The notes below the pieces were generated by a model. That model was given only the letters and a program-made list of their open reading frames with translations, was not told the DNA's origin and did no database searches. Below, piece after piece: positions 8,246 through 64,000 of a stretch of 64,000 nucleotides of DNA. Numbering within the stretch: position 1 is the stretch's first letter; every line of letters starts with the position of its first letter. Location of the stretch: the NCBI RefSeq assembly GCF_030684315.1, contig NC_081391.1, forward strand, positions 1,612,001 to 1,676,000. Direction: 5' to 3'. The translations under genes and the position numbers were made by a program. This DNA is from Stegostoma tigrinum (lineage: Eukaryota).

Positions 8246-8468
8246 GATAATAAAATGTGAGGCTGGATGAACACAACAGGCCCAGCAGCATCTCAGGAGC
8301 ACAAAAGCTGACGTTTCGGGCCTAGACCCTTCTTCAGACTCTCTGTTGAAGGGTGTAGGCCCGAAACATCAGCTTTTGTGCTCCTGAGATGCTGCTGGGC
8401 CTGCTGTGTTCATCCAGCCTCACATTTTATTATCTTTGGATTCTCCAGCATCTGCAGTTCCCATTATC
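8246..8468. mobile_element. Short palindromic Penelope-derived element with 13-bp target-site duplication
   Basis: Inverted repeat 8246-8434 centred near 8340. ACTGGGTTAACGT at 8233-8245 and 8469-8481. Sequence matches the 3' end of the 36986-38256 element. Confidence 0.9.
8310..8337 (-). ncRNA. Minimal type I hammerhead ribozyme motif
   Basis: CUGAAGA-A-GGG(ucuagg)CCC-GAAA-C-GUC: intact core boxes and cleavage triplet. Helix I is weak in this copy. Confidence 0.6.
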
Positions 8469-9158
8469 ACTGGGTTAACGTGACCTTTTTTCTAAATGTT
8501 TTACCTTTGTTTTTAATTCAGATTTATTTTAAGAGGCATGTCATTTTAGAGAGCATTTGCAGAGCTCTGAGATGAGGAATCTGGGTGGCTTTGTGCATGA
8601 ATTGCAACAGCAAATATAATAAACAATTGTTAGCTTACCTAATTACTTGTTTTTGTAAGGGCAATTGAATACAATGAAATTGTTTGCTATACAAATGAGA
8701 CTTTACCTGGACTTCCGTGTACAGAATTGGCCAGCTCTTTAATGTGCCAAGGGGTCCCCAATTAATGACTTACATGCCTTTACAAGATTGCATTTGTAAT
8801 TTTAAAGATCTGACAAGTGAATATTTCCTCTAATTACAAATAGATCCTGTGTACTGTCTTGTATTAGTCTAATTTCTATATGAATAGACTTGCAAACCAG
8901 TCTCCAGAACACAACCTATTCAGAATTCTAGCTCTACCTGTAAATACACCGTGAGCAGATCAGAGAAGGTTCACCATACTACTGAGGGTGGATGGGTTGA
9001 CTTTTTGAGGAAAGGTTGGACAGGCTAGGCTCTTACTCCAGTTTTAGAGTAAGAAGCATCTTAATTGAAACATACAAGATCTGGAGGGACCTTAACAAGG
9101 TAGATGTGGAGAAAAATAAACATTTTTGGGTTGGGACCCTTTGGACATGGGTGGGGTT

Positions 9159-9401
9159 GGGCACAGAGAGCTGGGAAATAAATAGGGAGAGGAGTGGTGG
9201 AGCTGGGGAAGGTAGGTGGGATGGCAATTGGTGAGTGCAGGTAGGGAGTGGTGGACGGCTTCCCTCTCTCTTATCTGCCCCTGCCCCCTCACTGACCAAT
9301 TCCCCACCACTCCCTACCTGCACTCGCCAATCGCCATCCCACTTACCTTCCCCAGCTCCACCACTGCTCCTCTCCCTATTTATTTCCCAGCTCTCTGCCC
9401 G
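9159..9401. mobile_element. Penelope-derived inverted repeat adjoining the assembly gap
   Basis: Arms about 9159-9255 and 9305-9401 are reverse complements; the ORF track shows mirrored MQVGSGG peptides on both strands. A hammerhead remnant follows the gap. Confidence 0.75.
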
Positions 9402-9409
9402 TGCCAGTG

Positions 9410-9571
9410 NNNNNNNNNNNNNNNNNNNNNNNNNNNNNNNNNNNNNNNNNNNNNNNNNNNNNNNNNNNNNNNNNNNNNNNNNNNNNNNNNNNNNNNNNNN
9501 NNNNNNNNNNNNNNNNNNNNNNNNNNNNNNNNNNNNNNNNNNNNNNNNNNNNNNNNNNNNNNNNNNNNNNN
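9410..9571. other. Assembly gap (162 N)
   Basis: Run of n characters. Confidence 1.
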
Positions 9572-10519
9572 AGAAGTGTCCTGACCTGAAACATCAACAT
9601 TCCTGCTTCCCAGAAAAGGAGAAGATGTTTCCTCTTGTGCGAGTATGTAGAATGAGAGGCCACTATTTTAAAAACAAGGTGCTGTCCCTCTCTAAAACAA
9701 GTGAAACCATTTTTTTTCCCCTCAGGTGGTCATGAGTCTTTGGATCAATGCTTCTAACATCTTGAGGAAGAAAGTCTGAATCTTTTTGAGAGTTAGACTT
9801 TTGAATGGCAAGAGGTTTTTTGGGGGCTAGGTGGAAATGTGGAGTAATCAGGTCAGCTGTGATCTTTATTGGGGAGATAGGCTTGTTGGACTAATGATCC
9901 CACTCATCTCCTCACTTGTATATTTTCAATTGAAGCTTGAACTCCACATTATCACTGTTAATTTTCAGTGCTATTTTGGCAGTAATCAACCTTCACTAAA
10001 AGACTGCTTAGACTTTAAAGACTTGAATTTAGCATTCTGTCCAATTTTCAGTTCTTACCTATCAAGTAAATACAGTAACTTGGCAGCATTTAACATAGGG
10101 CATTAGCTAACAAGGAATTTGGAAAGAAGTACATGTGATGTTCATGAGACACCGTTTGTAGCTATTGGAAGGACCTGCAGTGATGAACAGTGAGAAGAAG
10201 CTGCACAAGTAGAAACTTTTTGGAATAGAAAGCTCTAGGAGTTATCTACAGTGCAGTGTGGGGAAAAGAAGGAAAGTAATAACTGCTGAAACCAAGTAAC
10301 AGAAACATTGAGGTTGTAATGGGTGATTCAGCACAAACTGATAGAACAGTTTGGGTTGTAAGACAGCCACTGCTGACATTTGGAACGACTTCCTTCAGCT
10401 CTGCCCCAGAAAGTGGCGTTCACACCTGTTGTTTTACAGCTATTAAAGCAGCAGTGGGAAGAGCTGGCTCATTGAGCCAGAGATGGAAAGAACTGTTGAT
10501 GCTGGAGCCAGTAAGTTTG

Positions 10520-10668
10520 GAGCTGGAGGAACACGCCAGGCCAGGCAGCATAAGAGGTGCAGGTAAGTTGATGTTTCGGGTTGAGACCCTTCTTCAGAAA
10601 TGAACCCGAAACATCAACTTCCCTGCTCCTCTGCTGCCTGGCCTGGCCTGCTGTGTTCCTCCAGCTCC
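10520..10668. mobile_element. Palindromic Penelope-derived short element
   Basis: ggagctggaggaacac...gtttcgggtt and aacccgaaac...gtgttcctccagctcc form inverted arms. Confidence 0.8.
10570..10597 (-). ncRNA. Minimal hammerhead ribozyme motif
   Basis: CUGAAGA-A-GGG(ucucaa)CCC-GAAA-C-AUC within the palindromic element at 10520-10668. Confidence 0.5.
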
Positions 10669-11097
10669 ACATTGCTGGCTTATCTGATAAGCCAATGTTT
10701 TAGAACTGTTTTTGTTAGGGATCTCACAAAGTAGGTAGAATGTCTTTTAATATTTAAACCCATGAATATTATTTAAATTGGGATACTACCCTTGTTGGAG
10801 AACCCTTTTTTCCTTTTCTTTGCCCTTTTGGTCTGCCCTTTTCGTCAGCCCTTTTACAGAGTAACTGCTGGTTTAATCTTTTAGGGCTAGTTACCTTCTG
10901 ACTGTGCTTTTTAATCTGCTCACTTTTTTTTGGAAAGCTAGTTTTGCTAAGAGAAGATTTTTGTTGTTTGAAGATAGAATGAGCGAAAGATTCTGAAACT
11001 CTTTCAAAGTGGTGAGTCTTTAACTGAATGCTGTTCAGAATCGTACTTAGAGGCAGTGGTACAGTCCTTGCCTGAGAGGGAAATTGACTTTGCAAAC

Positions 11098-15920: not shown

Positions 15921-18235
15921 TTAAGTCTAAGAAAGGAACCCAGTGATCCAAGAATCTAAAGCCTTCTCTTCTACTCCAACTCTTCAGCTATGCATTCATC
16001 AGCTCTGTGGACCTACTCCTTTATTCACAATCCAGAAATTACAATTTTTTTTTCCTGAAGAAGGGTCCAAACCTGAAACATTAGCCTTTCAGCTCCTCTG
16101 ATGCTGGTTGGCCTGCTGTGTTCATCCAGCTTTACGCCTTGTTATCACTTATTACAATCTTTGTGCTTCTTTTCAATCTGCGCTTCACTCCCTAAAGTCT
16201 TGTTGTACACCTCTGACTATTTATTTGACATTGAACAGCTGCAGGGCATCCCCAGTGCCATCCTTCACCCTCCTCCCAGGCCCTAACACCATCCTAGTGT
16301 CATGTTTCAATTGTAGAAGTGCCTGCCCTTACAGTCCTGAGTTTTCTATTATTATAACTCTTCCTTTCTGTCTGTTCCCTTTATACTCTCTCTCACTGTC
16401 TCTCTCTTGCCCCCTGTTACCCTCCCACTTTGTTGAGGGTGTGGGGAGGTCTGTATGTGTTGGGAGGGGGACAGTGTTGCTCTCACTATTTTCAAAAATG
16501 CATAAACTGTCATAGTCATAGAGGTACACAGCATGGCTCAATTTGTCAATTCTGATCAGGTTTCCTAAACTGTACTAGTCCCATTTGCCTGTATTTGGCT
16601 CATGTTCCTCTAAAACTTCCTATCGGTGCTTGTACGATGCCTTTTTTTAAATGTTGAAATTATTCTTGTCTCTACGGCTTCCTCTGGCAGCTTGTTCCAT
16701 ACATTGTCTGCCTGCAATGTGAAAAAGTTATCCTTCTGGTCCCTTTTTAAATTCCACCCCACCCCCCCACCCCCCCCCCCCCCCCCCCCCCCTCCATAAA
16801 CCTATGCTTTTGGATGACTCTACCTTGGCTATTCACCCTCCTGATTATATAAATAAATCCAAGGTCACCCCTCAGGTCAGATGCTCCCAGGGGACTAAAG
16901 TCCCGGTCTATTCAGCCTGCACTTAAATTTGAATCTTTCAGTCTCGCAATCTCTCAATCTTGTAAGATGCTCTCTGAACTTTCCTGAATGCCAGCTTGGC
17001 TGCCTCCACCCACTTTCATGAAATTTCTTTCTGGTGACAGTCCATTTAGCTGCAGAGTGACCTTGTCTTTAAAGCGTTCTCCCTTCTTAATTCAGCCTCA
17101 CAGAAACACTGCTGTGCCTGGTGGATGTAGTCAACCTGTAGATGTGATCATTCAGACATACTGCAGGCCATTCAAACTGGGACTGAGCTCCCCTATCATA
17201 CCTCTGCTTTTCAAAACAAGACTCCTCGTAAATGTAAGTAGAAAATCCTTTTTATTTTGAAAGGAAGCTAAGACTATTAAAGCAACTTTTTAAAATGGGC
17301 AAAAACAACCTACCAGTGAGTTAATGGTGTGGAGCTGAACGAACATTGCAGGCCAGGCAGCATCAGAGGAGCAGGAAGCTGACATTTCAGGTTGGCACCT
17401 CCCTTCAGTTCACTGTTTTTGCACCGTTGTCACTTTCTCCAGGCTCGATTCTGTTGGGGTTTAGCAGCTGCTCAGTATGGACCCTACTACAGGCTTTTGT
17501 TGGGAAGCTCTGATGCCGCAGTTTACCCCCAAATTGGTTCTGCTGTAACTGGTTCATCCTCCAGCGGATTTGTAGACAAGAAAACTCTACCTTTTTTGTA
17601 ACCTTGTGATCTTCCTGTTTTTCGGGCTTGAAACCATCTTAATGTAGGTCAGTAATTTACAGGAATTTTATTGCCGTTTATCAGCATGTAGAGTGGTCAT
17701 ACTGGATGAAGGGAGTTAACCTGTGTTTCCACTCATTTTGATCTTAGTAATGAGAACTTGTTGTCTATAAAGTGGTTGTTCTTTGCTGATAGTTGGCCGA
17801 GAGATTTACTTCAAGTTTTTTTTTCTTAACCTTTTTCTTCTCTTGGCATGAAGGGTGATGTGGAACAAAGAGGTTTAGTCATTTTGCTGATATTTGGAGG
17901 GCCATAGCTGCCCTGCACCTGCAGCTTGCTACAAATTTAAGGGCTGTTTTGGCAATCTTTCCTTAACTCTCTCTGCAACAATTTCAAAGTAACAATCCCA
18001 CACTTCAAAATAGCAACATTGTCTTCCACAGCTAAAAACGTGCACCATGTGATTTTTACCAAGTTGCAAAACTCTCCAGACATTCTGCCTACGGCAGCCT
18101 GACTTCCATTTCAGTTTTTACTTCAAAACAAGAGTATCTGGTGCCTTTTAGTGTGCATTTTGTCAGTTGAAAGGTAGTTTGTTTGTGTAAAGTGCTATAG
18201 CAAGGCAGTTTCTTGGAGGTGTTTTAATGATTGAT

Positions 18236-18253: not shown

Positions 18254-18254
18254 G

Positions 18255-19769
18255 ATGAAGATGCGCCGACGCCGTGTGGTTCTGGTTCTGTGTATGGCAG
18301 GACTATGTCTTATTTCTTTCATGCACTTCCTCAAAGCCCTGTCCTACATCACATTTTCCCATGAGCTGTCTGCCTTCAGCCCTTCACTCCGGTCCATCTT
18401 CGTCAACTCTCAGTTCTTCTGGAAACCGAATACTGCGGTGAATGTAAATACTAGCCCTGGGCTACCCATCACTGTGAAAGCTCAGAATGGAGCCCGCCCA
18501 CCATTACACAGAGCCCTGTTTGAACTGAAAGATGATGAGACAAAGTACTTCGTACAAACCAAAGCAGGAGCCATTTGTTTTAAGCAAGGCACCAAGATGG
18601 CGGCAGCATCCGTGGACGGTGCAGTTGACTGGGACCACAATGCAATGGACAAGCAGTTGGCACAGAAGGCAAACAGGGGTTTTAGTGGCAGGCCTAGGCG
18701 CAGGTGGGTGGGATGCCCTTGTCTCCCAGGCTGGCATGGGCCCTATTGTGGGGTGCCCACCATGGTCCAGTATTCCAATCTGCCAACAAAAGAGCGTCTG
18801 AGCCCACGACCGATGCCTCGCAGGGTGATCAATGCCGTTAACATCAACCATGAGTTTGATCTGTTGGATGTCCGGTTTCACGAGTTGGGCGATGTGGTTG
18901 ATATCTTCATAATCTGTGAGTCCAACTTTACTGCCTTTGGGGAGCCCAAGCCCCTGAAATTCATAGAGATGCTGCAAAATGGGACGTACAGTTACATGGG
19001 CAACAAGATCCTATACGTGTTCCTGGACCATTTTCCCAGTGGAGGGAGGCAGGATGGCTGGATCGCTGATGATTACTTAAGGACCTTCCTGACCCAGAAT
19101 GGTATGAGTCGGATTATCAATTTACGGGATGATGATATCTTCCTCATAAATGATGCTGATGAGATTCCAGCTCACGATGGTGTGCTGTTCCTCAAACTCT
19201 TTGATGGTTGGACTGAACCCTTTGCCTTCCATCTGCGGAAGTCACTGTATGGTTTTTTCTGGAAGCAGCCAGGGAGCCTGGAAGTGATATCAGGTTGTAC
19301 TGTGGCCATGCTCTTCATGGTTTACAATGGAGATGGGATTAAATTGCGGCGGCGGGAATACTATTTGATGCCAAACTTCCGGCTGTATGAGAACAGCACT
19401 GGACATATCCTGGTGCCCTGGGCAGTAGGTAGTCCCCTTCACTTTGCAGGCTGGCACTGTTCCTGGTGCTTCAAACCTGAAGGTATCCGCTACAAGCTGC
19501 TGTCTGCACAGAACGGAGACTTCCCCCGCTGGGGGAATTACCAAGAGAAAAGAGATCTGAACTACATTCGAGAGTTGATTCAGACAGGTGGCTGGTTTGA
19601 TGGCACTGAGCAAGATTACCCTCCTGCAGACCCCAAAGAACACATGTACGCTCCAAAGTACCTGCTGCAAAACTTTGACAAGTATCGATACATCTTGGAG
19701 AATCCATACAGGAAGGACAACTGGGACCAGGAAGCTGCAATGTACAATCAGACTGGGAAGATTACATAG
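18255..19769 (+). CDS. MGAT3: Beta-1,4-mannosyl-glycoprotein 4-beta-N-acetylglucosaminyltransferase (GnT-III, GT17 family), 504 aa, single coding exon
   Basis: Intact ORF starting MKMRRRRVVLVLCMAGLCLISFMHF (type II signal anchor, matches the vertebrate MGAT3 N-terminus). It contains CPCLPGWHGPYCG, RRVINAVNINHEFDLLDVRFHEL, NDADEIP (DxD) and FAGWHCSWCF. The true ATG is 18255, directly after a pyrimidine tract and AG acceptor (AG 18252-18253). TAG at 19767-19769. Confidence 0.97.
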   Translation: MKMRRRRVVLVLCMAGLCLISFMHFLKALSYITFSHELSAFSPSLRSIFVNSQFFWKPNTAVNVNTSPGLPITVKAQNGARPPLHRALFELKDDETKYFVQTKAGAICFKQGTKMAAASVDGAVDWDHNAMDKQLAQKANRGFSGRPRRRWVGCPCLPGWHGPYCGVPTMVQYSNLPTKERLSPRPMPRRVINAVNINHEFDLLDVRFHELGDVVDIFIICESNFTAFGEPKPLKFIEMLQNGTYSYMGNKILYVFLDHFPSGGRQDGWIADDYLRTFLTQNGMSRIINLRDDDIFLINDADEIPAHDGVLFLKLFDGWTEPFAFHLRKSLYGFFWKQPGSLEVISGCTVAMLFMVYNGDGIKLRRREYYLMPNFRLYENSTGHILVPWAVGSPLHFAGWHCSWCFKPEGIRYKLLSAQNGDFPRWGNYQEKRDLNYIRELIQTGGWFDGTEQDYPPADPKEHMYAPKYLLQNFDKYRYILENPYRKDNWDQEAAMYNQTGKIT

Positions 19770-23389: not shown

Positions 23390-25130
23390 AGTAAGTCACT
23401 TTCTGATTCATGTGCTGGAGGATTGTGAAAGCTCTGCCACTTTGTTTTCAAACCTGAATAATTGTAAGCCAGTCAGCCTGACCTCCAGAGTGGGGGGGAG
23501 GAAGATTATTAGAATCCAGTGAGACATGAGATAAGCTTGCTCTCAGCAAGGCATGGATTAATCAATAATAACCTTAAGGAAAGATCAGTTCTAATTAAAG
23601 TGAATATTGAGGAAAAGTGAAGAAGGAAATATTAGGGCAGTGGAAATATGATCTACATGGATTTTAATAAGACAACTGACAATGGTAAATGTTTTTCAAA
23701 AACAATGAAAGCCCATGGGATACGAGATGATTTTACCCAAGTATCTTGGCTCGGTGACAAGAAACCACAATTGTTGATGGGTGTTCTTGCAACAGGATGG
23801 CCGTTTCCAGTGGCATTCTACAGGAAACAATCCAAGGTCCCCTGCTTTTTGTGGTATGTATCAATTTTGTGCGTGTGCGTGCATGCATGCGAGGTTCAGC
23901 CTATTGAGTCTGCTTACTGAGATCATGCTGCACTGATAATCCTTGACTCTATTTTACTTGACTTTCCTACCTTTTCTCTATAACACTTGATTGCCTTAGT
24001 GAATAAAGTACATTTCAAGGTAGTGGTGAATTTTTAATGACCCATCGTTAATTGCCTTATTGTAAAGAATTTCACAGATTCTCCACCTTCAAAGAAATTT
24101 CCCAGCTCATCTGACTTAATCTCAGAGTAGGAGAAACACATTTATGCCCTTTAATTCCACAAGGAGAAGCCACTTTCCACATCTGCCCTGTAAGAATTAA
24201 GTATGTTTCAATAGTTACCCCTCATTCTTCTGTATTCTAGGTACAGGCCCAATCTGCTCAGCTTCTCTTCATGATGATTACTTCACAGCTGGAATCAACC
24301 TAGGCTGGAAGTCACGTGACACTAGTTATAGTCCAATAGGTTCATTTGAAATCACAAGCTTTTGGAGTGCTGATCCTTTGTCAGGATTTTACTACCAGTA
24401 AATCTGTTGGACTATAAACCTGATGTCATGTGACTTTTGACCTTGTCTATACCAGTCCAACATGGCTCCTCCACATCATGGAATCAGCCTACTAAGCCTT
24501 TTCAGGACTTCTGCCAATGCTGGCAGATATTTACCCTTTTCAGATAAGGGGGCCCAAAACTGTTTGTGGTATTCTACCTATGGTGTGCAGGGAACAGTGC
24601 TATATCCTACAAAATGATATTGATGGATAGGTCATGTGTGCAAAAAATGTCAATTGGATTTCAGCTCGGAGAAGTGAGTTGATGCACTTGGGAGATCAAA
24701 CAAGGCAAAAGAATCCACGATTAGTGGGAGAATGTGGGTGAAGAGAAATTGAGGGTAATAGGATAGGTTGGTGAGGTGTCTAATGAATAAGGAATTTTTT
24801 TCAAAACTTATGCACATACAGAGTAGAAAAGCTAGGAGTTAATGCTAGAACTATATTAGAACTGCTCAAAATATGTTGCCAGGGCTGGGATAATGCAGTT
24901 ATGAGGAAAAAACTAAGCAGGTTGGTGTTCTCCCAGGAGCCGAGGAGAGATTGTTGGCAACGTATAAAATGTTAGGAGCCTATTTACCTCAGCAGAGGGG
25001 TAGTGACAACGGAAATAGATTTTAAAGCAATCTGCAGAAAGTTAAAAACCTTTTTCTTCAAAGGATGATAGTGGTCTGGAGCTCATTGCCTGACACAGCC
25101 GTAGAAGCAAAATTTTCCAGCTTGTGGACT
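23390..25130. mobile_element. Decayed CR1-like LINE with nested fragments
   Basis: IYMDFNK motif in ORF 23648, continuing near 24590 after a minus-strand CR1 tail and the 24303 element. Confidence 0.6.
24303..24478. mobile_element. Palindromic short element of another Penelope-like family, with target-site duplication
   Basis: Inverted arms aagtcacgtgacac..ttatagtccaa and ttggactataa..tgtcatgtgactt. Degenerate minus-strand hammerhead with an AAGCTT palindrome. TGGAATCA(A/G)CCTA at 24290-24302 and 24479-24491. Confidence 0.7.
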
Positions 25131-26500: not shown

Positions 26501-26767
26501 CCTACCTCCCCACCTACACTTTCCTCTACAAGCTCCATCCCTGCCCCTTTAACTTGTCTCCTCTCTAACTATCTTCTTCTCCTATGCATCTTTGATCCGC
26601 CTCTCCCTATTTATTTTACAACCTTCAACCCTCCCCCTTTTCTGATGAAGGGTCTAGGCCCGCAACATCAGCTTTTGTGCTCCTGAGATGCTGCTGGGCC
26701 TGCTGTGTCCTTCCACCTCCACACTTTGTTATCTTGGATTCTCCAGCATCTGCAGTTCCCATTATCT
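26501..26767 (+). mobile_element. Penelope 3' fragment with 13-bp target-site duplication
   Basis: CTGACCTTGATTC at 26488-26500 and 26768-26780. CTGATGA..GCAAC hammerhead (GAAA mutated) at 26642-26669. Confidence 0.85.
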
Positions 26768-27197
26768 CTGACCTTGATTCTACATGTGGCTATTTCCCAG
26801 CTGTTACCATCAGTAGCCCTGCCTGTGGTAGTGATATACTAGGGGGTGGGAGTGGGTGGTGGAAGGAGAGTGTTTCCTGGGGATACTTCAATGTTGAGTT
26901 CAGACTTTGATGTCTTGTGGCAAGGGCACACGATATAATGTGGTGGGGAGGAAGAAGAGAAGTGGTTTGAAAGCACTACTGCTGCCGCCATGATCCTAAA
27001 ACATGTACCTTAAAGCTTGGGTCTGCAGTAGTTGACGAGGAAAGCAACAAGAGGGTCTTTGTCCTCACCAACCTACCTCTTGCAGCTGACAACCACCAAT
27101 TTTTTTTATGACAAAGCCCTGTTCTCATGCCCTCCATTGTCTGTTGTATAATCACTGCTAAATGTAAGACTACATGCTGATCTACCCATGAGGCACT

Positions 27198-32419: not shown

Positions 32420-32608
32420 GACAGTAGGAACTGCTGATGCTGGAGAATCTATTTATTTCAGAATCCCCTTCCCCACCCCCTTTTCTGAAGAAGGGTCCAG
32501 ACCTGAAATGTCAGCTTTCCTGTTCCTCTGATGCTGTTTGGCCTGCTGTGTTCATCCTACTCTACACCTTGTTATCTCAGATTCTCCAACATCAGCAGTA
32601 CCTACTAT
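32420..32608 (+). mobile_element. Penelope 3' fragment with short inverted 5' copy of its terminus
   Basis: agtaggaactgctgatgctggagaatc ... gattctccaacatcagcagtacctact. Hammerhead-like core at 32485-32512. Confidence 0.75.
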
Positions 32609-34289: not shown

Positions 34290-34419
34290 GGTTCCTCATG
34301 GTGGATTGGTTAGCAAGGTTATCACATGGAATACAGGGAGGACCACCCATTTGGATACAGAACTGGCTCAGAAGTTGAAGGCAGAGGGAGCCAGTGGAGG
34401 GTTGTGTGGCTCAGATGGG

Positions 34420-35490: not shown

Positions 35491-35507
35491 GCAGGTAAGA
35501 AACTAAA

Positions 35508-35732
35508 GAACTGCAGATGCTGTAAATCAGGAAACAAAACATATTGCTGTAAAAGCTCAGCATGTCTGGCAGCATCTGAAGGAGAAAACAGAGTTAGTGT
35601 TTCAGGTCTAGTAAGCTCTAAGTTCTGAGGAAGGGTAACCGGACCTGAAACGTTAACTCTGTTTTCTCCCTCACACCTGCCGAGCTTTTCCACCAATTTT
35701 TGTTTTTCTTCCTGATTTACAGCATCCACTTT
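35508..35732. mobile_element. Palindromic Penelope-derived short element
   Basis: gatgctgtaaatcaggaa..ggagaaaacagagtta is mirrored by taactctgttttctcc..ttcctgatttacagcatc. Contains the 35621 hammerhead. Confidence 0.8.
35621..35658 (+). ncRNA. Minimal type I hammerhead ribozyme motif (best-paired copy)
   Basis: AGUU-CUGAGGA-A-GGGU(aaccgg)ACCU-GAAA-C-GUU-AACU: 4-bp helix I (AGUU/AACU), 4-bp helix II, palindromic AACGUU in place of helix III. Confidence 0.65.
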
Positions 35733-35924
35733 TTCTGGATTTTATGCAGTTCCACTGGTGGCCATAGTGGGCGCTCTGTGTCGGTGTGCAGTTTCCTTCC
35801 GGTGGCCGCAGTAGGCGCGCCGTGTCGGTGTGCGATTCCCCTGTTGACCAGAGTGGGCGCGCTGTGTAGCCATCCAGTTCCCCTTGTGGCCTTAGGAGGC
35901 GCGCTGTGTCGGGATGCATTAACA

Positions 35925-36143
35925 GAGATGATAAGAGTTGGAGAATCTGAGATAACAAAGTGTAGAGCTGGATGAATACAGCAGGCCAAGCAGCATCAGA
36001 GGAGCAGGAAAGCTGACGTTTCAGGCCCAGACCTTAGGGATCGATGCAGGGCCCGAAACGTCAGCTTTTGTGCTCCTCTAAGATACTGCTTGGCCCCACA
36101 CTGTTACCTTGGATTCTCCAGCGTCTGCAGATCCCATTATCTC
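35925..36143. mobile_element. Palindromic Penelope-derived element inside the MICALL1 promoter
   Basis: aagctgacgtttcaggccc and gggcccgaaacgtcagctt form inverted arms. Ends in cccattatctc like the 8246 and 26501 copies. Confidence 0.8.
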
Positions 36144-36192
36144 GGACCGATGCAGTCCCCCTGGTGGTCGGAGGGGGCGCGCTGTGTCGCGC

Positions 36193-36224
36193 TGCAGTAC
36201 CCTGGGCGTCTGTAGGGGGCGCAG
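36193..36224 (+). promoter_or_regulatory. Candidate CTCF site (upstream module plus core)
   Basis: TGCAGTACC, a 7-nt spacer, then TCTGTAGGGGGCGC, matching CCASYAGRKGGCRS at 12 of 14 positions. Confidence 0.6.
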
Positions 36225-36279: not shown

Positions 36280-36419
36280 ATGGCGACCCGAGCGCTGCAG
36301 GAATGGGCCCGTCTACAGGTGTTGGGATACCCGGGGGTCGAGGTGACGAACATGAGCTCGAGCTTCAGGGACGGGCTTGCCTTTTGTGCCATCATCCACC
36401 GGCACCGCCCTGAGCTGAT
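36280..36419 (+). CDS. MICALL1: MICAL-like protein 1, coding exon 1 (start of calponin-homology domain)
   Basis: cccATGGcg start in a CpG island. Translates [46 protein letters not shown](I). Phase-2 donor AT|GTGAGT at 36420. Confidence 0.9.
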
Positions 36420-36985
36420 GTGAGTGTCTGGGGAGGCCGTGCAGGGAGGGTCTCTTCCCCCGCCCCAGCCCTGAGGTGAAGAAGTACAGGGCTCTCTACC
36501 CCAGCCCTGAGTGACCATGGGGTACCTGGTCAGGGAGAGTATCCCCTAGGGGAGTTCTCGGTACAGTGTTTCACCCAGCATGGAGAGTGGAGTGAGAAAG
36601 ACGGGGCTTCGGGACCCTGAACTGTTCCTTCATCTCTTCTGGCTGTAAGCTGGCTTGTTGGTCCCTGTTGGAACTGCTCCGGCCTGGACAGAGCTGGGCA
36701 AAGTGAGCACCCAGTCTCACCCCGTGCCACGTTCTCCTTGGCCCAGGGCATGCTTCTAGAGTAGCACAGAACAGCAGGGATCAGAATAACTGACTGCTGA
36801 AGTGTAAATTTTTCAGTTACGTGGATTGGCCATGCTAAATTGCCCCATAGAGTCCCGGCTAGCTGGATTAGCCACAAGGTAAATGTGGTGTTACAGGGAT
36901 GGGGGTGGGAAGGTGGATCTAGCGGGAAGGTGGATCTAGCGGGATGTTCTTTGGGGGATCACAGCAGACGCAGTGGGATGAATGG

Positions 36986-38256
36986 AGATCAGAGCTAATG
37001 GGAACTGCAGATGCTGGAGAATCCAGGATAACAAAGTGTGGAGCTGGATGAACACAGCAGGCCAAGCAGCATCTCGGGAGCACAAAAGCTGATGTTTCGG
37101 GCCTAGACCCTTCATCGGAGAGGGGGATGGGAAGAGGATTCCGAAATAAATACGGAGAGAGGGAGAGGCGGACCGATGATGGATAGAGGAGAAGATAGGT
37201 GGAGAGTATAGGTATGGAGGGGGTAGGTCAGTCCAGGGAGGATGGAAAGGTCAAGGAGGTGGGATGAGGTTGGTAGGTGAGAAATGGAGGTGCAGCTTGA
37301 GGTGGGAGGAGGGGATGGGTGAGAGGAAGAACAGGTTAGGGAAGCGGGAATGAGCTGGGCTGGTTTTGGGATGTAGTGGGGGAGGGGGAGATCTTGAAGC
37401 TTGTGAAGTCCACATTGATACCATCAGGCTGCAGGGTTCCCAAGCGGAATATAGGTTGCTGTTCCTGCAACCTTCGGGTGGCATCATTGTGCCATTGCAG
37501 GAGGCCCAGGATGGACATGTCATCGAAGGAATGGGAGGGGGAGTTAAAATGGTTTGCGACTGGGAGGTGCAGTTGTTCATTGTGAACCAAGCGGAGGTGT
37601 TCTGCAAAGTGGTCCCCAAGCCTCCGCTTGGTTTCCCCAACATAGTGGAAGCCACACCGTGTACAGTGGATACAGTATACTACATTGGCAGATGTGCAGG
37701 TGAACATCTGCTTGATGTGGAAAGTCATCTTTGGGCCTGGGTTGGAGATGATGGAGGTGGTGTGGGGGCAAGTGTAGCACTTCCTGCGGTTGCAGGGGAA
37801 GGTGCCAGGTGTGGTAGGGTTGAAGGGGAGTTTGGAGCGAACAAGGGAGTCACGAAGAGAGTTGTCTCTCCGGAATGCAGACAAGGGTGGGGATGGGGTT
37901 GGTGGGGTTGGATTGTAGAATGCAGAAGTGTCTGAGGATAATGCATTGTATCCAGAGATTGGTGGGGTGGTATGTGAGGATGAGGGGGATTCTTTTAGAG
38001 CGGTTATTGCGGGGGCGGGGTGAGTTATGTGTTGCAGGAAATGCGGGAGACACAGTTTAGGGCGTTCTTGACTTCTCTTTGGGGGTGGGGGGGCCAAGGA
38101 GTTGCGGTCCTTGAAGAACGTGGCCATCTGGGATGTGCGGGAGTGGAATGCCTCATCCTGGGAGCAGATGCGGCAGAGGCGAAGGAATTTTTGCAGGGGG
38201 GTGGGTGGGCGGGCGGTCGGAGGTGTATCCTAGGTAGCTGTGGGAGTCGGTGAGCT
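36986..38256 (-). mobile_element. 5'-truncated Penelope-like retroelement (GIY-YIG endonuclease region plus 3' terminal region)
   Basis: ORF 37336-38127 has PCNRRKCYTC, NVVYCIHCTRCGFHYVGETKRRLGDHFAEH and IFRLGTLQPDGIN. Hammerhead-like motif at 37091-37118. Flanked by direct repeat GGATGAATGG (36976-36985, 38257-38266). Confidence 0.9.
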
Positions 38257-40029: not shown

Positions 40030-40876
40030 AGGTAACAAAGTATGGAGCTGGATGAACACAGCAGGCCAAACAGCATCTTAGGAGCACAAAAGCTAACATT
40101 TCGGGCCTCGACTCTGCATCAGAAAAGGGGGATGGGGAGAGGATTCTGAAATAAATAGGGAGAGAGGGGTGGCGGACTGGAGATGGATAGGGGAGAAGAT
40201 AGGTGGCGAGGAGAGTATGGGTGGGGAGGTAGGAAGGGGATAGGTCAGTCCGGGGAGGACGACAGGTCAAGGGGGTGGGATGAGGGTAGTAGGTAGGAAA
40301 TGGAGGTGTGGCTTGAGGTGGGTGGAGGGGATAGGTGAGAGGAAGAACAGGTTAGGGAGGTGGGGACGAGCTGGGCTGGTTTTGGGATGCAATGGGGACG
40401 GGGAGATTTTGAAGCTGGTGAAATCTACATTGATACCATTGGGCTGCAGTGTTCCCAAGCGGAATATACGAGTAGCAGTTTCTGCAACCTCAAGGGGCAT
40501 CATTATGGCACTGCAGGAGGCTCAGGATGGACATGTCGTCTAAGGAACGGGAGGGGGAGTTAAAATGGTTCGCGACTGGGAGGTGAAGTTGTTTATTGCG
40601 AACCAAGCGTAGGTGTTCTGCAAAGCAGTCCCCAAGCCTCTGCTTGGTTTCCCCAACATAGAGGAACCCACAAGGGGCACAGCGGATGCAGTATACTACA
40701 TTGGCAGATGTGCAGGTGAACATCTGCTTGATGTGGAAAGTCATCTTGGGGCCTGGGATGGGGGTGAGGGAGGAGGTGTGGGGGCAAGTGTAGCACTTCC
40801 TGCAGTTGCAGGGGAAAGTGCCAGGTGTGGTAGGGTTGGAGGGGAGTGTGGAGTGGACAAGGGTGTCGCGGAGAGA
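40030..40876 (-). mobile_element. Second Penelope-like GIY-YIG fragment, same family
   Basis: ORFs 40490-40927 and 40267-40503 are near-identical to the 37336 ORF but frameshifted. Confidence 0.88.
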
Positions 40877-41415
40877 GTAACTCCCCTCTTGATTCCTCAA
40901 AGCCTGTCCACCATCTACAGGGCACAAGTCAGGAGAGTGATGGAATATTCCCCACTTTCCTGGATGAGTACAGCTCCAACAACACTCAACAAGCTTGACA
41001 AAACAGCCTGCTTGACTGGCACTGCATCCACTCCCTCCTGAGATGCTCAGTAGCAGCAGTGCATACTATCTACAAGATGCACTGCAGAAATTCCCTAAAG
41101 ATCCTCGGACAGCACCTTCCAAAGCTATGAACACTTCCATCTAGAAGCATAAGGGCAGTAGACTCATGGGAGCACTACCATCTCCAAGTTCCCCTCAAAG
41201 CCACCCACCATCCTGACTTGGAAATATATCGCTGCTCCTTCACTGTCGCTGGGTCAAAATCCTAGAATTTCCTCCCTAATGACATTGTGGATCAACCCAC
41301 AGCTGATGGACTGCAGCATTCCAAGACGGCAGTTCATCACCACCTTCTCAAGGGCAATTAGGGATGGGCAAGAAATGCTGGTCAGTCAGCAATGTGCACA
41401 TCCCACAAATGAATA
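40877..41415 (+). mobile_element. LINE (second family) 3' end
   Basis: IYRAQVRRVMEYSPLSW and the tail gggcaattagggatgggcaagaaatgctgg. Confidence 0.75.
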
Positions 41416-48390: not shown

Positions 48391-48500
48391 AAATGGCCAA
48401 GATGGTGGCAGATCCTCTGCTCGCCAGTCCCTTTTATCTATTTTTCCGCTCTTTTTGTTTTCCCTGTCCGAAGTGAATGGGCCAAGTTCTGCAGCAGATC

Positions 48501-48599
48501 AGAGTGGACACCGGCTGAGTCCCACGGCGGACCGGAATGGATACAGGCTGAGTCCCATGGTGGACCAGAGTGGACAACGGCTGAGTCCCATGGCAGAAC
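48501..48599 (+). repeat. 33-bp tandem repeat, 3 copies
   Basis: agagtggacaccggctgagtcccacggcggacc-type unit at 48501, 48534 and 48567. Confidence 0.9.
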
Positions 48600-53640: not shown

Positions 53641-53704
53641 GAATAGCTGGGGTCCGAACATCAATCCCTGCTCTACCCATCTCATTCAGGAGAAGGTTTT
53701 TTTT

Positions 53705-54003: not shown

Positions 54004-54387
54004 CTCATTTTATTCTGCCTTGGGAGCCTACAACCCAATGATCTCAGTAGGGACTTCAGTTTCAAAATTTCCCCAGCCCCCAGCCTTATCCCATGATCAA
54101 CCCTCCCTCTCATCCCTGCCTCCTTGACCTGACACCATCTTCTCTCTCTCCTATCCGCTTCTCCCACCTCCATTGATTAATCCCCACTACTCCCTACCTG
54201 CACTCAACCATCACCATTCCACCAATATTCCCAAGCCCCCCCCCCCCTTCCCCGTCCCCCATTTCTGAAGAAGGGTCCTGATCTGAAACGTCAACTTTCC
54301 TGCTCCTCTGCTGTCAGCCCTGCTGCGTTCCTCCAGCTTCACACTGTCTTTTCTCTGACTCCAGCATTGGCAGTTTTTACTATCTCC
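54004..54387 (+). mobile_element. Penelope 3' fragment
   Basis: Degenerate GIY-YIG C-terminus, C-rich UTR, hammerhead and the family terminus. Confidence 0.75.
54265..54292 (+). ncRNA. Minimal hammerhead ribozyme motif
   Basis: CUGAAGA-A-GGGU(ccug)AUCU-GAAA-C-GUC within a Penelope 3' fragment. Confidence 0.5.
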
Positions 54388-55180: not shown

Positions 55181-55918
55181 CTTCTGGAAATTTTTTTAAG
55201 CTTAAGGGAGCCCCACACTTTGGAGGGGAAATTTCTTTTACTTTGTCTTTTGTGCATTCCTGAGGAGTCTCTATTTTTAAGATGCTTATAATGACCAGTG
55301 CTTCTGAGAAACGAAGGATAAGGAGAGCAGTGTTAGTCCCAGACTAGAAGTGTTGGGATAAGATCCAGAAGAGGGTACTTTAAACTGAGTACATTTAAAC
55401 TCTGGTGTAGAATAACTCCGGAGGAAGCTACCTGCAATTCCAGTCCAAAAGTTAAAGTCGTGAATGACTTAAACCTTCTGAGATGTCAAAGACAGGGACA
55501 CTGGTGTGAATACTGTCCTGGAGGTGTTCTGTTTACAACACAAAATCTGTTTTCCATTTTAATGTACAGGTAAGTAATAGTATCTTGAGGGAAGAGTTCC
55601 TGCAGTGTGTACAAGGTGGTTTTCTGGATCAATACATTAAGGAACCAACTTGAGGACAAGGCATTCTAGGCTGGGAGAGAAACAGAAACAACTTGGCAGG
55701 TCTGGCAGCATCTGTGGAGAGAAAGCAGAGTTAACGTTTCTGGTCTGATGACCCTTCTTCCAAATGCAGAACAGCCTAGACTGGGAATTGTGTAACGAGA
55801 AAAGATAACTTGCAGGCCAGCTGTGCACTGACCCTTGGGGAAGAGTGGCCAAAAATGATAAAATTCTTGATTTTACTGACATAGTTAAATCTGCAAATAG
55901 GGTAAGAATATAAATAGC

Positions 55919-57205: not shown

Positions 57206-58146
57206 GAACAGAGGAATTCTGGACGCCAAAATGGAAGCTGATTGTTGTTCTTTTCTCATGAATTTAGTCCCTGCGAATACTTTGAGGTGGTAGGTTTCTT
57301 TTAATTTGTTGCGTCTAATAATGATAAATGCGTCGTCTACATACCGGATCCACAGTTTAGGTTGCATGTGAGAGTGGGTGGTGTGTTCTAATCTTTGCAT
57401 GACTGTCTGTGTGTTTAGTCCTGAGATGGGTGGCTCCATTGTGCCAATGATCTGTTTGTATACTTGACCATTAAAGACGAAGTGTGTGGTGAGGCAAGGT
57501 CTAGTAGTTTGAGTATGTTGTCATTGCTGATGGAGCTGCTGGCCTGCATTCCTGCTTCCTCTAGTAATGTGGCCAGTGTTTGTTTGGGTAGTGGGATGTT
57601 GATTGATGAATAATGCTGTGACGTCAAAAGATGCTATAATCTTGTCGTCACTGATTTTTGTTCTTGAGGGTATTGAGGAATTCTTGGATTGAGTGGATGG
57701 AATGGGGAGATCTGTCAACTCGGTGTTTCAGCCTCTCAGAATACATGAACATCAGCTAGCAACAAAACAACACAATGAACTTTGCTTAATATGAGTACAC
57801 TCAGACAATGAAGGCCATCAGCTTAGCTAGGACAGCGTAACTATTGTAGTCCAAGCCAAACACAGACAGACAGGAATTCCTAGATGCATGGTTCTCAACC
57901 CCTAAGGCAAACAAGAAACATATAGAATTGGACCCCTTATACAAACCTGGAAATCACACTACTCATTATCACAGACCGGCAGTATAAATTCCAACTGAAG
58001 TGGAACAACATCGCTTCATTGGAGGCCTCATTGATGTTACCTAGCATGGTGGTGAAGCGTCTGAACAAAAGCAGTTCAGCTCAGTGAGCAAGTCAACAAC
58101 CTCACCCATAACCAAGCTACAAATCTTTGCTAAAACTTTAAACCAA
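57206..58146. mobile_element. Penelope-like element of a different family, with inverted 5' part
   Basis: Minus-strand RT fragments IASFDVTALF, xPISG and WIRYVDDAFII (about 57215-57735). The plus-strand 3' part carries a degenerate hammerhead at about 58028-58063. Interrupts a CR1, with GAGTAAT on both sides. Confidence 0.75.
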
Positions 58147-59489: not shown

Positions 59490-62400
59490 GAGTCATAGAG
59501 TAATATAGTGTGAAAACAGGCCCTTCGGCCCAAACTGATGCATGCTGACAATGGTGCCCACTCAGCTAGTTCTGATTGCTCAGGTTTGCTTCATGCCGCT
59601 CTAAACCTTTCCCATCTGTGTACCTATCCAAATGTTTTGTAAATTTTGCTGTGATACCTGCCACAACCACTTTCTCCGGCAGCCCTTCCATATACGCACT
59701 ACTGCCTGCATGCAGAAGTAGCCCCTTGAGTCCATCTTAAATTTTTCCCCTCTCACCTTAAACCTATGCCCTCTAGTTTGCAATTCCCCAACCCTTGGGA
59801 ATTAAAACTATACGCATTTATCCTATCTATGCCCCTCATGATTTTCTACAACTCAATAAAGTCACCCCTTATTCTCTTACGTTCCAAGGAATGAAGTCCT
59901 GTGCTGTCCACCCTCTTAATGTACTCAGTGTCTCGACTGAGGAAGACCAGCATGCTAAATACCGCCTTTACCACCCTGTCTACCTGTGACACCGTTTTCA
60001 GTGAACTATGTACTTGTGCTCCTAGGTCCCTCTGTTCCACAACATTCCACAGGACCTTACCAATTACTGTGTAAATCCTATGTTGGTTCGACTTTCCAAA
60101 GTGCAACACCTCTCACTTATCTGTATTGAATTGCATTTGCCAATGCTCAGCTCAATTCTCATCCAATCAGGATTCCTCTGTAATTTTTGATAATCTTCCA
60201 TGCTATCAACTGTACCTGCTAATTTTTTTATTATCCGCAAACTTAGTAATCATGCCTTTTAATTTCACACACAGATCATTATTGTCAATGACAAAAAACA
60301 AAGGTCCCAACACCAATCCCTGTGGCGCGCCACTGATCACAGGCCTTCATTCCAAGAAACAGCCTTCAACCATCACCCTCTGCTTCCTACCATTGAGCCA
60401 ATTTTGAATCCAATTTTGAATCCAATTAGCTAGCTGTCCCTGGATCCCATGCAACATAACCTTTGTGACTCGCCTGCCGTGTGGGACCTTGTCAAAGGCC
60501 TTACTAAAGCCCATGTAGACAATATCCACTGCCCTCGCATCCATCGTCTTGGTTACCTCTTCGAAAAGCTCTAAAAGATTTGTCAGACATGACTTCCTGC
60601 ACACAAATCCATGCTGACTATCCCTAATCAGACCTTGACTGTCCAAATGTTGATTGATCTTGTCCCTTAATATCCTCTCCAATAATTTGCCTCCTACTGA
60701 TGTCAGGCTCACTGTCCTGTAGTTCCCTGGCTTTGTCTTTGCTGCCTTTCTTAAATAATGGAACAACATTAGCCACCTTCCAGTCTTCTCGAACTTCATC
60801 AGTGGCTAAAGATGAAGCAAAATTCTCTGCAAGAGCCTGTGCGGTTTCTTCCCTAGCCTCCTATGATGTCCGAGGATGGACTTGATCAGGCCTGGGGCAT
60901 TTGTCCACCTAAATATGCTTTAAGGCTACAAACGCCTCCTCTCTGGTAATGTGTGGCTCAAAACATCCCCACCTGTTTCCCTTATTCTTTAGCATGCATG
61001 ATTCTCTCCGCAGTAAACTCTGAGGAGAAGTATTCATTAAAAATCTCCCCCATCTCCTGTGGCTCCATACATAGACCACCATGCTGATCTTTATGGGAAT
61101 CTAAAGTCTCCCTAACCACCCTGTTACTCTTAATATAGCTATAAAACCTCTTGGAATTATCTTTAACCTTATCTGCTAGATCCACGTCGTACCCTGTTTT
61201 TGCTCTTCAGATTACCCTCTTGACTCCGCTCCTAGATTTTTTGTTAATCTAGGAATTCATTTGAGCCTGATAACTTAAACCCAATGTATGCCGCCTCCTT
61301 TTTCCTGACCAGAGCCTCAGTATCCCTCGTCAGCCAGGGATCCCTAAATCTGCGACCTTTTCCCTCCGCCAGGGACATACTATCCCTGGACTCTTGATAT
61401 CACATTTTTAAAAGCCTCCCGTTTTCCAGTCGTAACTTTTCCTTCAAACAGACTCACCTAGTTGACCTCTCCTAAATCCTGCCTAAAGGCCTCAAATTTA
61501 GCCTTGCTCTAGTTTAGCACCTTAACCTGTGGATGTGTTCTATCTTTTTCCATAACTATGTTAAAACTGAGACAGTTATGGTCACTGGACCCAAAATGTT
61601 CTCCAACTGACAATTTACTCACTTGCCCGATCTTGTTTCCTAGGAGCAGGTCCAGTGTTACACCCTCCCGAGTAGGGCCCTCTAAAATCTCCAACCAACT
61701 CTATTATTCCTACAGGTACCTGCAATCTTACTACATGTCTTCTCCTCCGAGAGCCCGCTGCCTATTTGCGGATCTGTAATACAGCCCCAACAGAGTGACT
61801 GTCCCCTTCTTGTTTCTAAATTCTAACCATATGGCATCACTTGATGACCCCTTAAGAATATCCTGTCTAAGCAGTGTTGTTATGTTCTCCCTTATCAAAA
61901 GGACAACTCCCCTTCCTCACTTACTTGTACTTCTGTCACTCCCGTAGCTTCTGTATCCTGGAGTATTGAGCTGCCAGTCCTGCCCTTTACTCAGCCAAGC
62001 TTCTGTTGAGGCAATTATATCCCAATCACCAGGGCCAGTCCATGCTCTGAACTCGTCTGCTTTACCAGTCAGGCCTCATGCATTGAAATAAATGCATTTA
62101 AAACCAAAAGTCTTTTCCCTCCCTTTATTGTGCCCCTGGCCATCCTGAATAGTAAGCTTGCCCTCGATGGGTAATGTATTTTCCCCGACTCCTCGATGGC
62201 CCCTCTCTTATTCAGAGTCCCATCCGCCTGCAAAACTGTTGTAAATCCACCTGGGTAACACTAGCAAATCTCCACACAAGGATATTCATCCCCCTCCGCT
62301 TTGAGTGCAACCTGTTCCTCTTGTACAGATCACCTGTACCCCAAAGAGATCCCAATGATCCAAGAAATGAAAACCCTGCCCCCTGCACCAGCTCCTCAGC

Positions 62401-62690
62401 CACACATTCATCTGGCCAATCTTTCTATTTCTATCCTCACTGACACGTGGAACTGGGAGTAATCCAGATATCACTGCCCTTGAGGTCCTGCTTTTTAACT
62501 TCTTACCTAATGCATTTCACGGGACCCCATCCCTTTGTGCACATTGTCTACCTCGGTCATTTGTACCAATGACCTCTGGTAGTTCACCCTCCCCCTTCAG
62601 AATGTTCTGCAACCACTTAGAGACATCCTTGACCCTGGCGCCCAGGAGGCAATATACAACCCTGGTGTCTTTTCTGCGGCCACAGGATCT
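59490..62690 (-). mobile_element. Near-full-length decayed CR1-like LINE (ORF1 esterase-like plus ORF2 endonuclease/RT)
   Basis: PGNYRTVSLTSVGGKLLE..SQHGF..FSKAFDKVPH, GPTREGVTLDLLL..SSDHN, and ORF1 ISGLLPVPR..NVWLRSWCRGQGFHFLDHWDLF. Confidence 0.88.
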
Positions 62691-62930
62691 TCTGTCTGTC
62701 CCCCTTTATAATTGTGACATGTCCAGTAATAACATAACAAACTTGAAGCATTAACACTCTTTCTCTCTGCACAGATGCTACCAGACCTGCTGAGTTTCTC
62801 CAGTATTTTCTGACCAGTATGTCTTACATGATACTTTTCAGGACAGGGCTATTTGTGTCAGGGTGCGAAAAGAGAGAGTCAGCAACATGGAGTGTACGTC
62901 ACTAGCATGCTTTGTGACTTTCAGTTCCAT

Positions 62931-63246
62931 CATGGTGGCTCAGTGGTTAGCACTGCAGCCTCACAGCACCAAGGACCCAGGTTCGATTCCAGCCTTGGGT
63001 GATTGTCTATGTGGAGTTTGCACATTCTCCCCGTGTCTCTGTGGGTTTCCTCCGGGTGCTCCGGTTTTTTCCCACAGTCCAAAGATGTGCAGGCTAGGTG
63101 GATTGTCCATGCTAAATTTCCCCCTAGTGCTCAGGGGTGTGCGTGGGTGTTATAGGGGATGGGTCTGGGTGGGATACTTCAAGGGGCAGTGTGGACTTGT
63201 TGGGCCAAAGAGCCTGTTTCTACACTGTAGGGAATCTAATCTAATC
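62931..63246 (+). mobile_element. tRNA-derived SINE (HE1-like)
   Basis: A box TGGCTCAGTGG, B box GGTTCGATTCC (62980-62990) and an aatctaatctaatc tail. Confidence 0.88.
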
Positions 63247-64000
63247 ACAATTTACCAATCCAATGTTCTTAAAACAGCCATCATGGAGCTAAATAATCAA
63301 CTTGTTCAGAGATGTTATGACACCTCTGGTGCAAGTGGAACTAAAATATGGGCCTCCAGGCTCAGAGGCTGGGGTAATTAATGTTGTACAAGACCCCCCT
63401 CTTATGGAGCAAAATAAACAGTGTTAACAAATGATTTTTGTTTGTGATTTATTCCATTCCCTCTCTGAAATCAGGGAGGATTCTGGAGCATTGAGAGCAG
63501 GATTCTCCATTTTATTGAACATAGAATCCATAGCTATTATCAACACTGAGCAATGTAGTAGTTAATGAAAACTTGAAAGCTTTGATTTGATTGAACCCTT
63601 CTGGTTTATTGAAGTGGCAAGCCACTGGATAATCGAGATCATTCCTACAGACAGACTGAAAATGTAAACTGTTCATCCAGGGGATATAGTTGTGTGTGTG
63701 GTATCATTATAACAAATTTGATAAAGTGCTATGTAACAGACCTGTCAGCAGAGATAAAGCCTGTGGAATGAAGGAGGCTGAGGCAACATCATTAGAAAGT
63801 TGGCTGAGCGACAGCAAATTGTGAGAAGTAATTTTGGTTTAGGATTATTCCACGGCACAACATCGTGGGCCGAAGGGCCTGTACTGTGCTGTACTTTTCT
63901 CTGTTCTATGTTCTAAAAACAGAAGTTGCTGGAAAAGCTCACCAGGTCTGTGAAGAAAAAAATCAGAGTTACCGTTTTAGGTCCAGTGACCCATCCTCAG

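Follow-up and report, generated by a model that had tools for sequence, protein, structure and literature searches.

The hammerhead ribozymes closest to those treated here are the minimal type I motifs of metazoan Penelope-like elements (PLEs), described by Cervera and de la Pena (2014, PMC4209133), for which cleavage as dimers has been reported (Lunse et al. 2017, as cited in PMC6765202). PMC4209133 itself states that in vivo evidence of cleavage is absent and gives the in vitro activity as weak, and the account of the green anole element Poseidon_Ac (Frangieh et al. 2024, PMC11167929) reports no cut ends in RNA-seq. Published counts, each obtained with a different descriptor from the one used below, are about 9,000 motifs in Xenopus tropicalis and 4,000 in the coelacanth (PMC4209133), and 126,247 type I motifs in the axolotl (PMC7229834). 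A Penelope expansion has been published for whale shark introns (bioRxiv 443036), and one preprint covers one chondrichthyan genome; a literature search on shark or elasmobranch Penelope ribozymes or Neptune elements found no paper on the motifs described here, and supplements may list counts or elements from cartilaginous fishes. The present analysis concerns a 64,000-nt stretch of Stegostoma tigrinum contig NC_081391.1 (the window), set against the 3.2-Gb genome of this species. Its recurrent hammerhead motifs are probably minimal type I ribozymes in the pseudo-long terminal repeats (pLTRs) of at least three families of GIY-YIG Penelope-like elements, the short copies being stubs from internally started reverse transcription that ran off the front of the RNA. 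A bolder proposition, for which belief and doubt are about evenly balanced, is that no genome in the papers compared carries hammerheads more densely than this one, and that its dead copies form a base-resolution record of germline RNA, with a capped start 4 nt ahead of the ribozyme core, two internal sites primed in pairs on both strands of the target, and a smaller share of templates cut by the ribozyme.

Minimal hammerheads and their carrier elements

A strict descriptor (CUGANGA, a helix II of at least 3 bp, and GAAA-NN-UH) matches the window six times, and these matches are, in coordinates and strand, the six well-preserved cores listed in an earlier note on this DNA, with none further. 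A tolerant scan yields 5, 9 and 13 sites when 0, at most 1 and at most 2 mismatches are allowed; eight dinucleotide shuffles average 0, 0.1 and 1.5. Together with BLAST searches with natural reference copies it recovers each of the nine partial copies named in the earlier note, which places those on the minus strand close to the 3' end of their core or slightly past it; arms overlooked there lie at about 10604(+), 17392(-), 24399(+), 32450(-), 35612(-), 40122(-) and 62741(+). The same BLAST searches delimit 17 insertion sites, or 18 when one weak 21-nt match is counted. On 17 sites there is about one per 3.8 kb. A scan of the window against Rfam, with E values up to 5, returned no hammerhead family; the miRNA and CRISPR matches that it did return were rejected as spurious, their sources being fold-back hairpins. 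No tandem hammerhead array lies within the 64 kb.

The motifs fall into four families, A to D. The very high copy number suspected from the window is borne out genome-wide: one exact 31-mer of family A occurs 93,061 times (control pattern, 0), and a family-C pattern 7,791 times. Strict motifs number 41 in five 100-kb stretches picked regardless of content (0, 0 and 2 in Markov controls). The full 1.05-Mb sample, which takes in 200 kb of contig 1 whose exact matches were known beforehand as well as 50 kb adjoining the window, holds 88 (CUGANGA, GAAA, U16.1, H17), against 2 in the reversed sequence. The resulting density of 82-84 per Mb extrapolates to about 2.6 x 10^5 motifs per genome and, with six strict cores in 64 kb, makes the window an average sample of the genome. 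More than 100,000 exact-match copies exist, mostly short stubs and likely dead.

The core boxes, helix II and a palindrome in place of helix III identify the motifs as minimal type I hammerheads, as the earlier note had claimed. Helix II has 4 bp in family A, 5 in B and 6 in C, and its G10.1-C11.1 pair is kept in 52/61 A, 7/10 B and 6/9 C matches, the remainder being G-U through CpG decay; a single unpaired base follows A9 in all 81 strict matches of families A-D. The palindrome at 15.2-16.2 is CG in 45/61 A, 5/10 B and 5/9 C, the remainder mostly showing CA/TG decay, and GC in D, so that replacement of helix III by a palindrome holds in all four families, decay aside. The closing pair of helix I is U-A in 58/61 A and 8/10 B, A-U in 9/9 C and C-G in the single D match, and the helix extends over 4 bp in B, 2-3 in C and 3 in D. 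The expected covariation is found between families for helix II, for the closing pairs of helix I and for the helix III palindrome, but helix I of family A has only 2 bp; a longer family-A helix I through CAUC/GAUG pairing was considered and dropped, as an older subfamily alters the 5' side without compensation. The core is preferentially conserved, as had also been anticipated: among 56 family-A copies chosen by tail and untranslated region (UTR), non-CpG mismatches amount to 2.7% in the core and 12% in loop II, a gap that is partly subfamily variation. Variation in family A sits at N7, in loop II and at wobble-compatible stem positions. Fixed core bases combined with stems that covary over four families argue for selection on catalysis in the source elements; the conserved core reflects selection there, not in the stubs.

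Single-strand folding of eight cores never gave the hammerhead fold (z-scores -1.1 to +1.8), and in family A it favours a competing hairpin that pairs CUGAU with GUCAG. Many copies occur as head-to-head pairs, and a transcript of one of them (8246-8434) is predicted to form a long hairpin of -173 kcal/mol. Since one sense and one antisense arm fold into such a hairpin, neighbours on opposite strands cannot form an active dimer, and the head-to-head pairs are, by these folding models, sense/antisense hairpins rather than ribozyme dimers.

The proposal of at least three Penelope-type families stands, as A, B and C each lie behind a GIY-YIG frame of their own. Family A is represented by locus L024, a two-pLTR element in the order core, open reading frame (ORF), core, with the cores 3,528 bp apart; its interrupted ORF (542 + 483 aa) contains reverse transcriptase (RT), CX4CX2C finger and GIY-YIG motifs read by eye, and in the window a decayed frame with Cys finger and GIY-YIG, the same as in L024, precedes the cores 37118(-) and 40122(-) on their 5' side. 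Family B cores follow a distinct Neptune-like endonuclease (five tblastn matches at four loci) and family C cores a distinct Poseidon-like endonuclease frame, B and C showing 33-45% identity to A and the part observed of both elements being the endonuclease end. Within the stretch that links RT to the endonuclease, a CX2-5CxxC finger, the mark of Neptune-type elements (PMC8557442), is present in A and left as a decayed trace in B; no Cys finger was seen directly ahead of the GIY-YIG motif in C. By these motifs, rather than by a tree, A and B appear Neptune-like and C Penelope/Poseidon-like. Family D (8 copies) has no endonuclease match upstream in the loci examined. On the minus strand of L024, a 13-codon upstream frame begins inside the core of the pLTR (ATG at +3, counted as below), and the ORF, which probably starts near +162, has an acceptor-like site ahead of that start; an intron acceptor in the pLTR tail was considered, and no donor was found.

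Insertion ends and the proposed transcript front

Counting takes C3, the C of CUGANGA, as 0. The predicted cut in family A follows GUC at +27, and the 3' product therefore begins with +28. The 3' ends of copies are bimodal, at about +88-97 and about +124-134, and of 170 copies a single one extends far into the ORF, a distribution that fits the two internal initiation sites and the tail described for Poseidon_Ac (PMC11167929). Of the 5' ends of young family-A copies, 19 of 81 lie between -5 and +1 and one between -30 and -11, and genome-wide patterns that require six mismatches immediately ahead of the start return 3,166 family-A starts at -4 versus 29 at -9. Of 124 A cores, 50 have a TATA-like word that begins at -34/-35, at a distance of 30 nt upstream of -4. 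A G stands directly ahead of -4 in 80 of the first 100 matches listed (hand count; 27% expected), and in 15 of the 17 starts with T two bases before, which cannot be the AG of a fold-back arm. Twenty -4 loci were hand-picked for a G and a non-fold-back look; in some the G is untemplated, as at L183, L190 and L201, where neither target nor partner supplies it, and single-arm copies with plain duplications likewise begin at -4. An untemplated G that heads insertions of L1 and SVA is interpreted as a copy of the cap (PMC4859970, PMC9341517); a literature search for a cap-derived G in Penelope found no paper showing one. By analogy, the extra G at -4 is likely a copied cap.

Head-to-head pairs of family A consist of one long and one short arm in 27 of 28 cases and are flanked by an 8-17 bp duplication in 20 of 28; junctions differ among copies, which have duplications of their own. 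In sequencing run X6, maybe from the same species or sample, opposite-strand joints of the types -1/-1, -1/-4 and -2/-4 occur in 47, 11 and 10 contigs. The head-to-head pairs of family C (L203-L228) are likewise mostly long plus short.

A second, smaller set of starts coincides with the predicted cut. Filtered family-A starts at +26 to +30 number 68, 162, 478, 149 and 207, the +27 and +30 counts being due in part to one recurrent microhomology junction and to single-base indels. By these filtered counts there is about one +28 start per seven -4 starts. Among the first 30 of the 478 starts at +28, 11 are joined to an inverted arm. Unique flanks occur in 7, of which one has a 13-bp duplication that abuts +28 and two show microhomology. 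Another 5 are tandem or complex, with one locus counted twice, and 3 follow a piece of ORF. G stands ahead of +28 in 5 of the first 30 listed, as expected of an uncapped end. These ends suggest that a minority of templates had already been cut, and the peak is likely a record of cleavage in the germline, although a weaker one than the -4 peak is of the cap. A literature search for in vivo cleavage by PLE hammerheads found no paper that demonstrates it. Head-to-tail tandems of roughly 100-bp units, each starting at +28 and lacking the core, were seen at L152/L153 and L077:195-396 and may possibly reflect template jumping on cut RNA. Near position 1500 of L149 three extra A lie exactly at the predicted cut bond, and at L187 an upstream copy ends at about +26 and a new unit follows from -4; both junctions could be scars of cut RNA.

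The mechanism proposed from these ends is as follows. A capped transcript would start at -4, about 30 nt below a TATA-like box, placing the ribozyme at the very front of the RNA. The element's protein would prime at about +92 or about +128 in one or the other pLTR copy: reverse transcription started in the 3' copy would leave 5'-truncated insertions bearing ORF sequence, and that started in the 5' copy would run off the RNA front and leave stubs of 100-135 bp. Each of the nicked target strands would serve as a primer at the two internal sites, and the resulting cDNAs would be joined head to head. The ribozyme would be mostly off, with its 2-bp helix I and competing hairpin, and would cut at times with help from protein or as a dimer; this rare cleavage would remove the cap, and copying of the uncapped 3' piece would give the +28 stubs. 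Genomic stubs themselves are likely inert. If the proposal is true, the dead copies provide the missing in vivo evidence for cleavage by PLE minimal hammerheads, and the ribozyme is a rarely firing switch that takes the cap off the transcript front. The ends of more than 10^5 copies also translate into single-base predictions: a capped start at -4, a 5'-OH end at +28, and primings at about +92 and about +128.

Several observations weigh against this interpretation. Cap and cut are both deduced from DNA rather than from RNA ends; for the anole element, RNA-seq gave no reads ending at the cut site, and cleavage was not needed in vitro (PMC11167929). In the hand-picked -4 loci the G is often shared with the last base of the target duplication or with the partner arm, and may then be microhomology. 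Family B has 1,105 starts at -4, with G ahead in 32 of the 100 listed, which is not above chance. The 5' ends of family C lie at -84 to -88 in 8 and at -17 in 4 of 46 copies, a sample weighted to pairs; filtered genome-wide starts at -17 number 12, and the start predicted 30 nt below the TATA-like word of this family failed to appear as a sharp peak. The +28 peak exceeds its neighbours just 2.3 to 7 times and opens with the palindrome AGCT, so that microhomology may still account for it, and 4 of the first 30 loci there are internal deletions or insertions rather than 5' ends. Helix I of family A is 2 bp long (its first and second pairs form in 60/61 and 59/61 matches, a third in just 3/61). 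Under energy models that leave out tertiary contacts and proteins, the active dimer reaches -5.5, -16.3 and -14.7 kcal/mol in A, B and C, against -38.0, -26.2 and -23.7 for the best dimer folds. Finally, the Pfam matches of the L024 ORF (GIY-YIG, E 7.5e-4; RVT_1, E 0.026) are both below the curated cut-off.

Some of these points feed an alternative, rated unlikely, in which the pile-ups are mechanical: RT would stall or fold back where it meets the ribozyme's edge, which is structured and rich in pyrimidines, microhomology at AG and AGCT would create the G excess and the +28 peak, and the ribozyme would never cut in vivo. Microhomology of 1-4 nt at many -4 and +28 junctions, the missing G excess of family B, the unfavourable active fold of family A and the success of Naiad elements, which thrive without hammerheads (PMC8557442), all speak for it, as does the attribution of junction palindromes to self-priming on an antisense template in PMC3846280. 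However, an enzyme moving 3' to 5' on RNA should stall at the 3' side of a structure, not beyond its 5' edge; starts drop to 68 two bases upstream of the cut; and the fixed core with covarying stems in four families implies selection on catalysis. The single-arm, plainly duplicated copies that begin at -4 and the -4 junctions whose G comes from neither target nor partner (L183, L190, L201) also speak against it, and self-priming as set out in PMC3846280, while conceivable, leaves both the single-arm -4 stubs and the extra G unexplained.

Still less probable is that the short copies are separate non-autonomous retroelements, of a retrozyme- or SINE-like kind, with short transcripts of their own and borrowed Penelope proteins. 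About half of the young family-A copies are shorter than 140 bp and without coding sequence, read-through could transcribe a stub that begins at -4, short tandems of +28-start units exist (the L077 dimer, L152/L153), and retrozymes derive from pLTRs according to bioRxiv 2026.07.22.740005. Stubs and ORF-bearing copies, however, have their pLTR sequence and both 3' ends in common, -4 stubs lack the TATA-like box, junctions are copy-specific, each with its own duplication, and the window is without a hammerhead array. The separate non-coding 150-280 bp retroelements mobilised in trans, which the earlier note had postulated, accordingly find no support: families A, B and C run upstream into their own GIY-YIG frames, and 37 of 81 young family-A copies reach more than 30 nt upstream into UTR or ORF, which, with the linkage of these families to their endonucleases, makes the short copies ends of these elements. 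They are stubs of autonomous elements, and form no separate non-autonomous family.

Copies, genes and other features of the window

The head-to-head architecture is seen in the family-A insertion at 8246..8469, where a short arm (-) with core 8310-8337, ending at +91, meets a long arm (+) with core 8343-8370, which has one core mutation; the axis is the 5' edge of the core, and a 15-bp target-site duplication (8233-8247 / 8469-8483) flanks the pair. An older family-A pair at 10490..10680 joins a strict core at 10570-10597(-) to an arm at 10604-10667(+) without the 5' half of the core. Further pairs belong to family D (24308..24480, with an AAGCTT-type helix III and a decayed core at 24353-24384(-)), to family B (35496..35745, with a strict core at 35625-35654(+), a start 4 nt ahead of the core and a 4-bp helix I) and to family A (35939..36146, both cores without the 5' half, about 130 bp upstream of the ATG of the CH-domain gene described below). 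A fold-back of an older family-A 3'-UTR at 9153..9386 is the origin of the spurious Rfam miRNA matches.

Single copies of family A are an older stub at 16052..16146(+), which begins about 3 nt ahead of its strict core (16055-16082) and stops at +91; a decayed older stub at 17326..17408(-), among those overlooked before; an older partial core, from helix II to the cut site, at 9572..9607(+), adjoining an N stretch; a 3' end with UTR and long tail at 26560..26771(+), its core at 26642-26669 mutated in the GAAA box; a copy at 32420..32608(+) with strict core 32485-32512 and a short inverted tail piece ahead; and an older copy at 54244..54384(+) with strict core 54265-54292. Two 5'-truncated family-A elements retain coding sequence: that at 36988..38240(-) comprises a decayed RT thumb, Cys finger, GIY-YIG, UTR, a core at 37091-37118 with one core mutation and a long tail, and that at 40030..40878(-) comprises Cys finger, GIY-YIG, UTR, a decayed core at 40095-40122 and a short tail. 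Family B is further represented by a stub at 55696..55764(-) with a decayed core at 55733-55762, a partial copy at 62741..62802(+) without the 5' half of the core, and a copy at 63915..64000(-), interrupted by the window end, with a decayed core at 63971-64000. Family C is represented by a Poseidon-like 3' end at 57980..58143(+), with a decayed core from 58028. The copies are mostly decayed, chiefly through CpG decay: among the six strict cores the ACGT palindrome is intact in three (8337, 35625, 54265), a Watson-Crick G10.1-C11.1 pair in two (8337, 10597), and none combines both with a helix I of at least 2 bp.

Convincing Pfam matches in window frames (24 long and 255 of 266 short frames scanned, the 11 left out overlapping the MGAT3-like exon) are limited to an exon of MGAT3-like type, a single CH exon and two fragments of RT. 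The claim that copies lie in introns of two genes is supported for the CH-domain gene, presumably MICAL-like; the first coding exon is at 36280..36420(+), a later CH exon follows about 4 kb beyond the window end, and the copies at 36980-64000 are intronic. It is less certain, though plausible, for a 5' intron of the MGAT3-like (Glyco_transf_17) gene, which has a single long coding exon at 18255..19769(+) with a splice-acceptor-like site near 18254 and for which no upstream exon was located. Directly upstream of the CH-domain gene ATG (35496-36200), the family B and A fold-backs lie in and beside a GC-rich array of 42-44 bp tandem units, possibly in the promoter or 5' UTR. That intronic copies act on the host by cleaving the pre-mRNA of either gene is far-fetched: introns of the CH-domain gene do hold copies, two with a sense core (54265, 58028), but the full set of features survives in none of the six strict cores, decay falls at CpG sites as in neutral sequence, single minimal motifs stayed uncleaved in the experiments of PMC4209133, head-to-head pairs are double-stranded hairpins and the density of the window is the genome average. 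Nothing suggests a host function for the copies.

Another abundant, LINE-like family, which is presumably CR1-like, has left RT fragments and repeated 3' ends at 47340-48041(+), 60347-60805(-), 27203-27680 and 33822-34689. A 33-bp tandem repeat of 3.2 copies at 48500-48607 lies in unmasked sequence and contains several overlapping short frames.

Comparison with described systems

The minimal hammerheads of metazoan PLEs described in PMC4209133 have in common with those of S. tigrinum the type I core without helix III, the palindromic 15.2-16.2, the extra base between A9 and G10.1 and the G10.1-C11.1 pair, as well as the location in pLTRs, the occurrence mostly as single dispersed copies and the presence of several families per genome. 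The 2-bp helix I of family A resembles the D. virilis variant, unlike the 4-5 bp of Schistosoma (PMC4209133). The scale differs, with 93,061 exact 31-mers and about 2.6 x 10^5 motifs here versus about 9,000 and 4,000 in that report, the descriptors being different.

As in the endonuclease-positive PLEs described by Craig et al. (2021, PMC8557442) and Arkhipova et al. (2013, PMC3846280), RT is followed by GIY-YIG, with a Cys finger in the case of family A, and pLTRs are present. Also found in both are heavy 5' truncation, an inverted 5' partner, an optional tail of 30-40 bp, duplications of 8-17 bp and TATA- or initiator-like words in the pLTR; relative to those accounts, what is added here is single-base resolution of the 5' ends (at -4, where an extra G precedes, and at +28) and a near-strict long-plus-short arrangement (27/28). 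Poseidon_Ac, as described in PMC11167929, likewise has two internal initiation sites that define the tail, nicking and extension of both target strands, a hammerhead near the ORF start and cleavage assisted by protein. It differs in that its RNA-seq has no ends at the cut site, whereas an excess of insertions at +28 is seen here at the DNA level.

Non-LTR retrozymes (PMC7229834; bioRxiv 10.64898/2026.07.22.740005) are, like the stubs, short non-coding hammerhead repeats related to pLTRs. In these accounts, however, their units of 170-400 nt are arrayed in tandem and give circular RNA, and the axolotl motifs are canonical type I, whereas the S. tigrinum copies are dispersed stubs with a minimal motif, tied to coding elements. 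At least two units in tandem, each with a complete hammerhead, are the criterion for a retrozyme; the tandems seen beyond the window start at +28 and lack the core. In L1 and SVA (PMC4859970, PMC9341517), an extra 5' G is likewise read as a cap copy, and two primings with an inversion fall within one duplication; L1, however, primes at its poly(A) tail and once internally, whereas in the present elements both primings would be internal, with products that meet head to head at the RNA front. The elements are of a known kind and the window is an ordinary sample of them; their interest lies in the scale and in a testable record of cap and cut.

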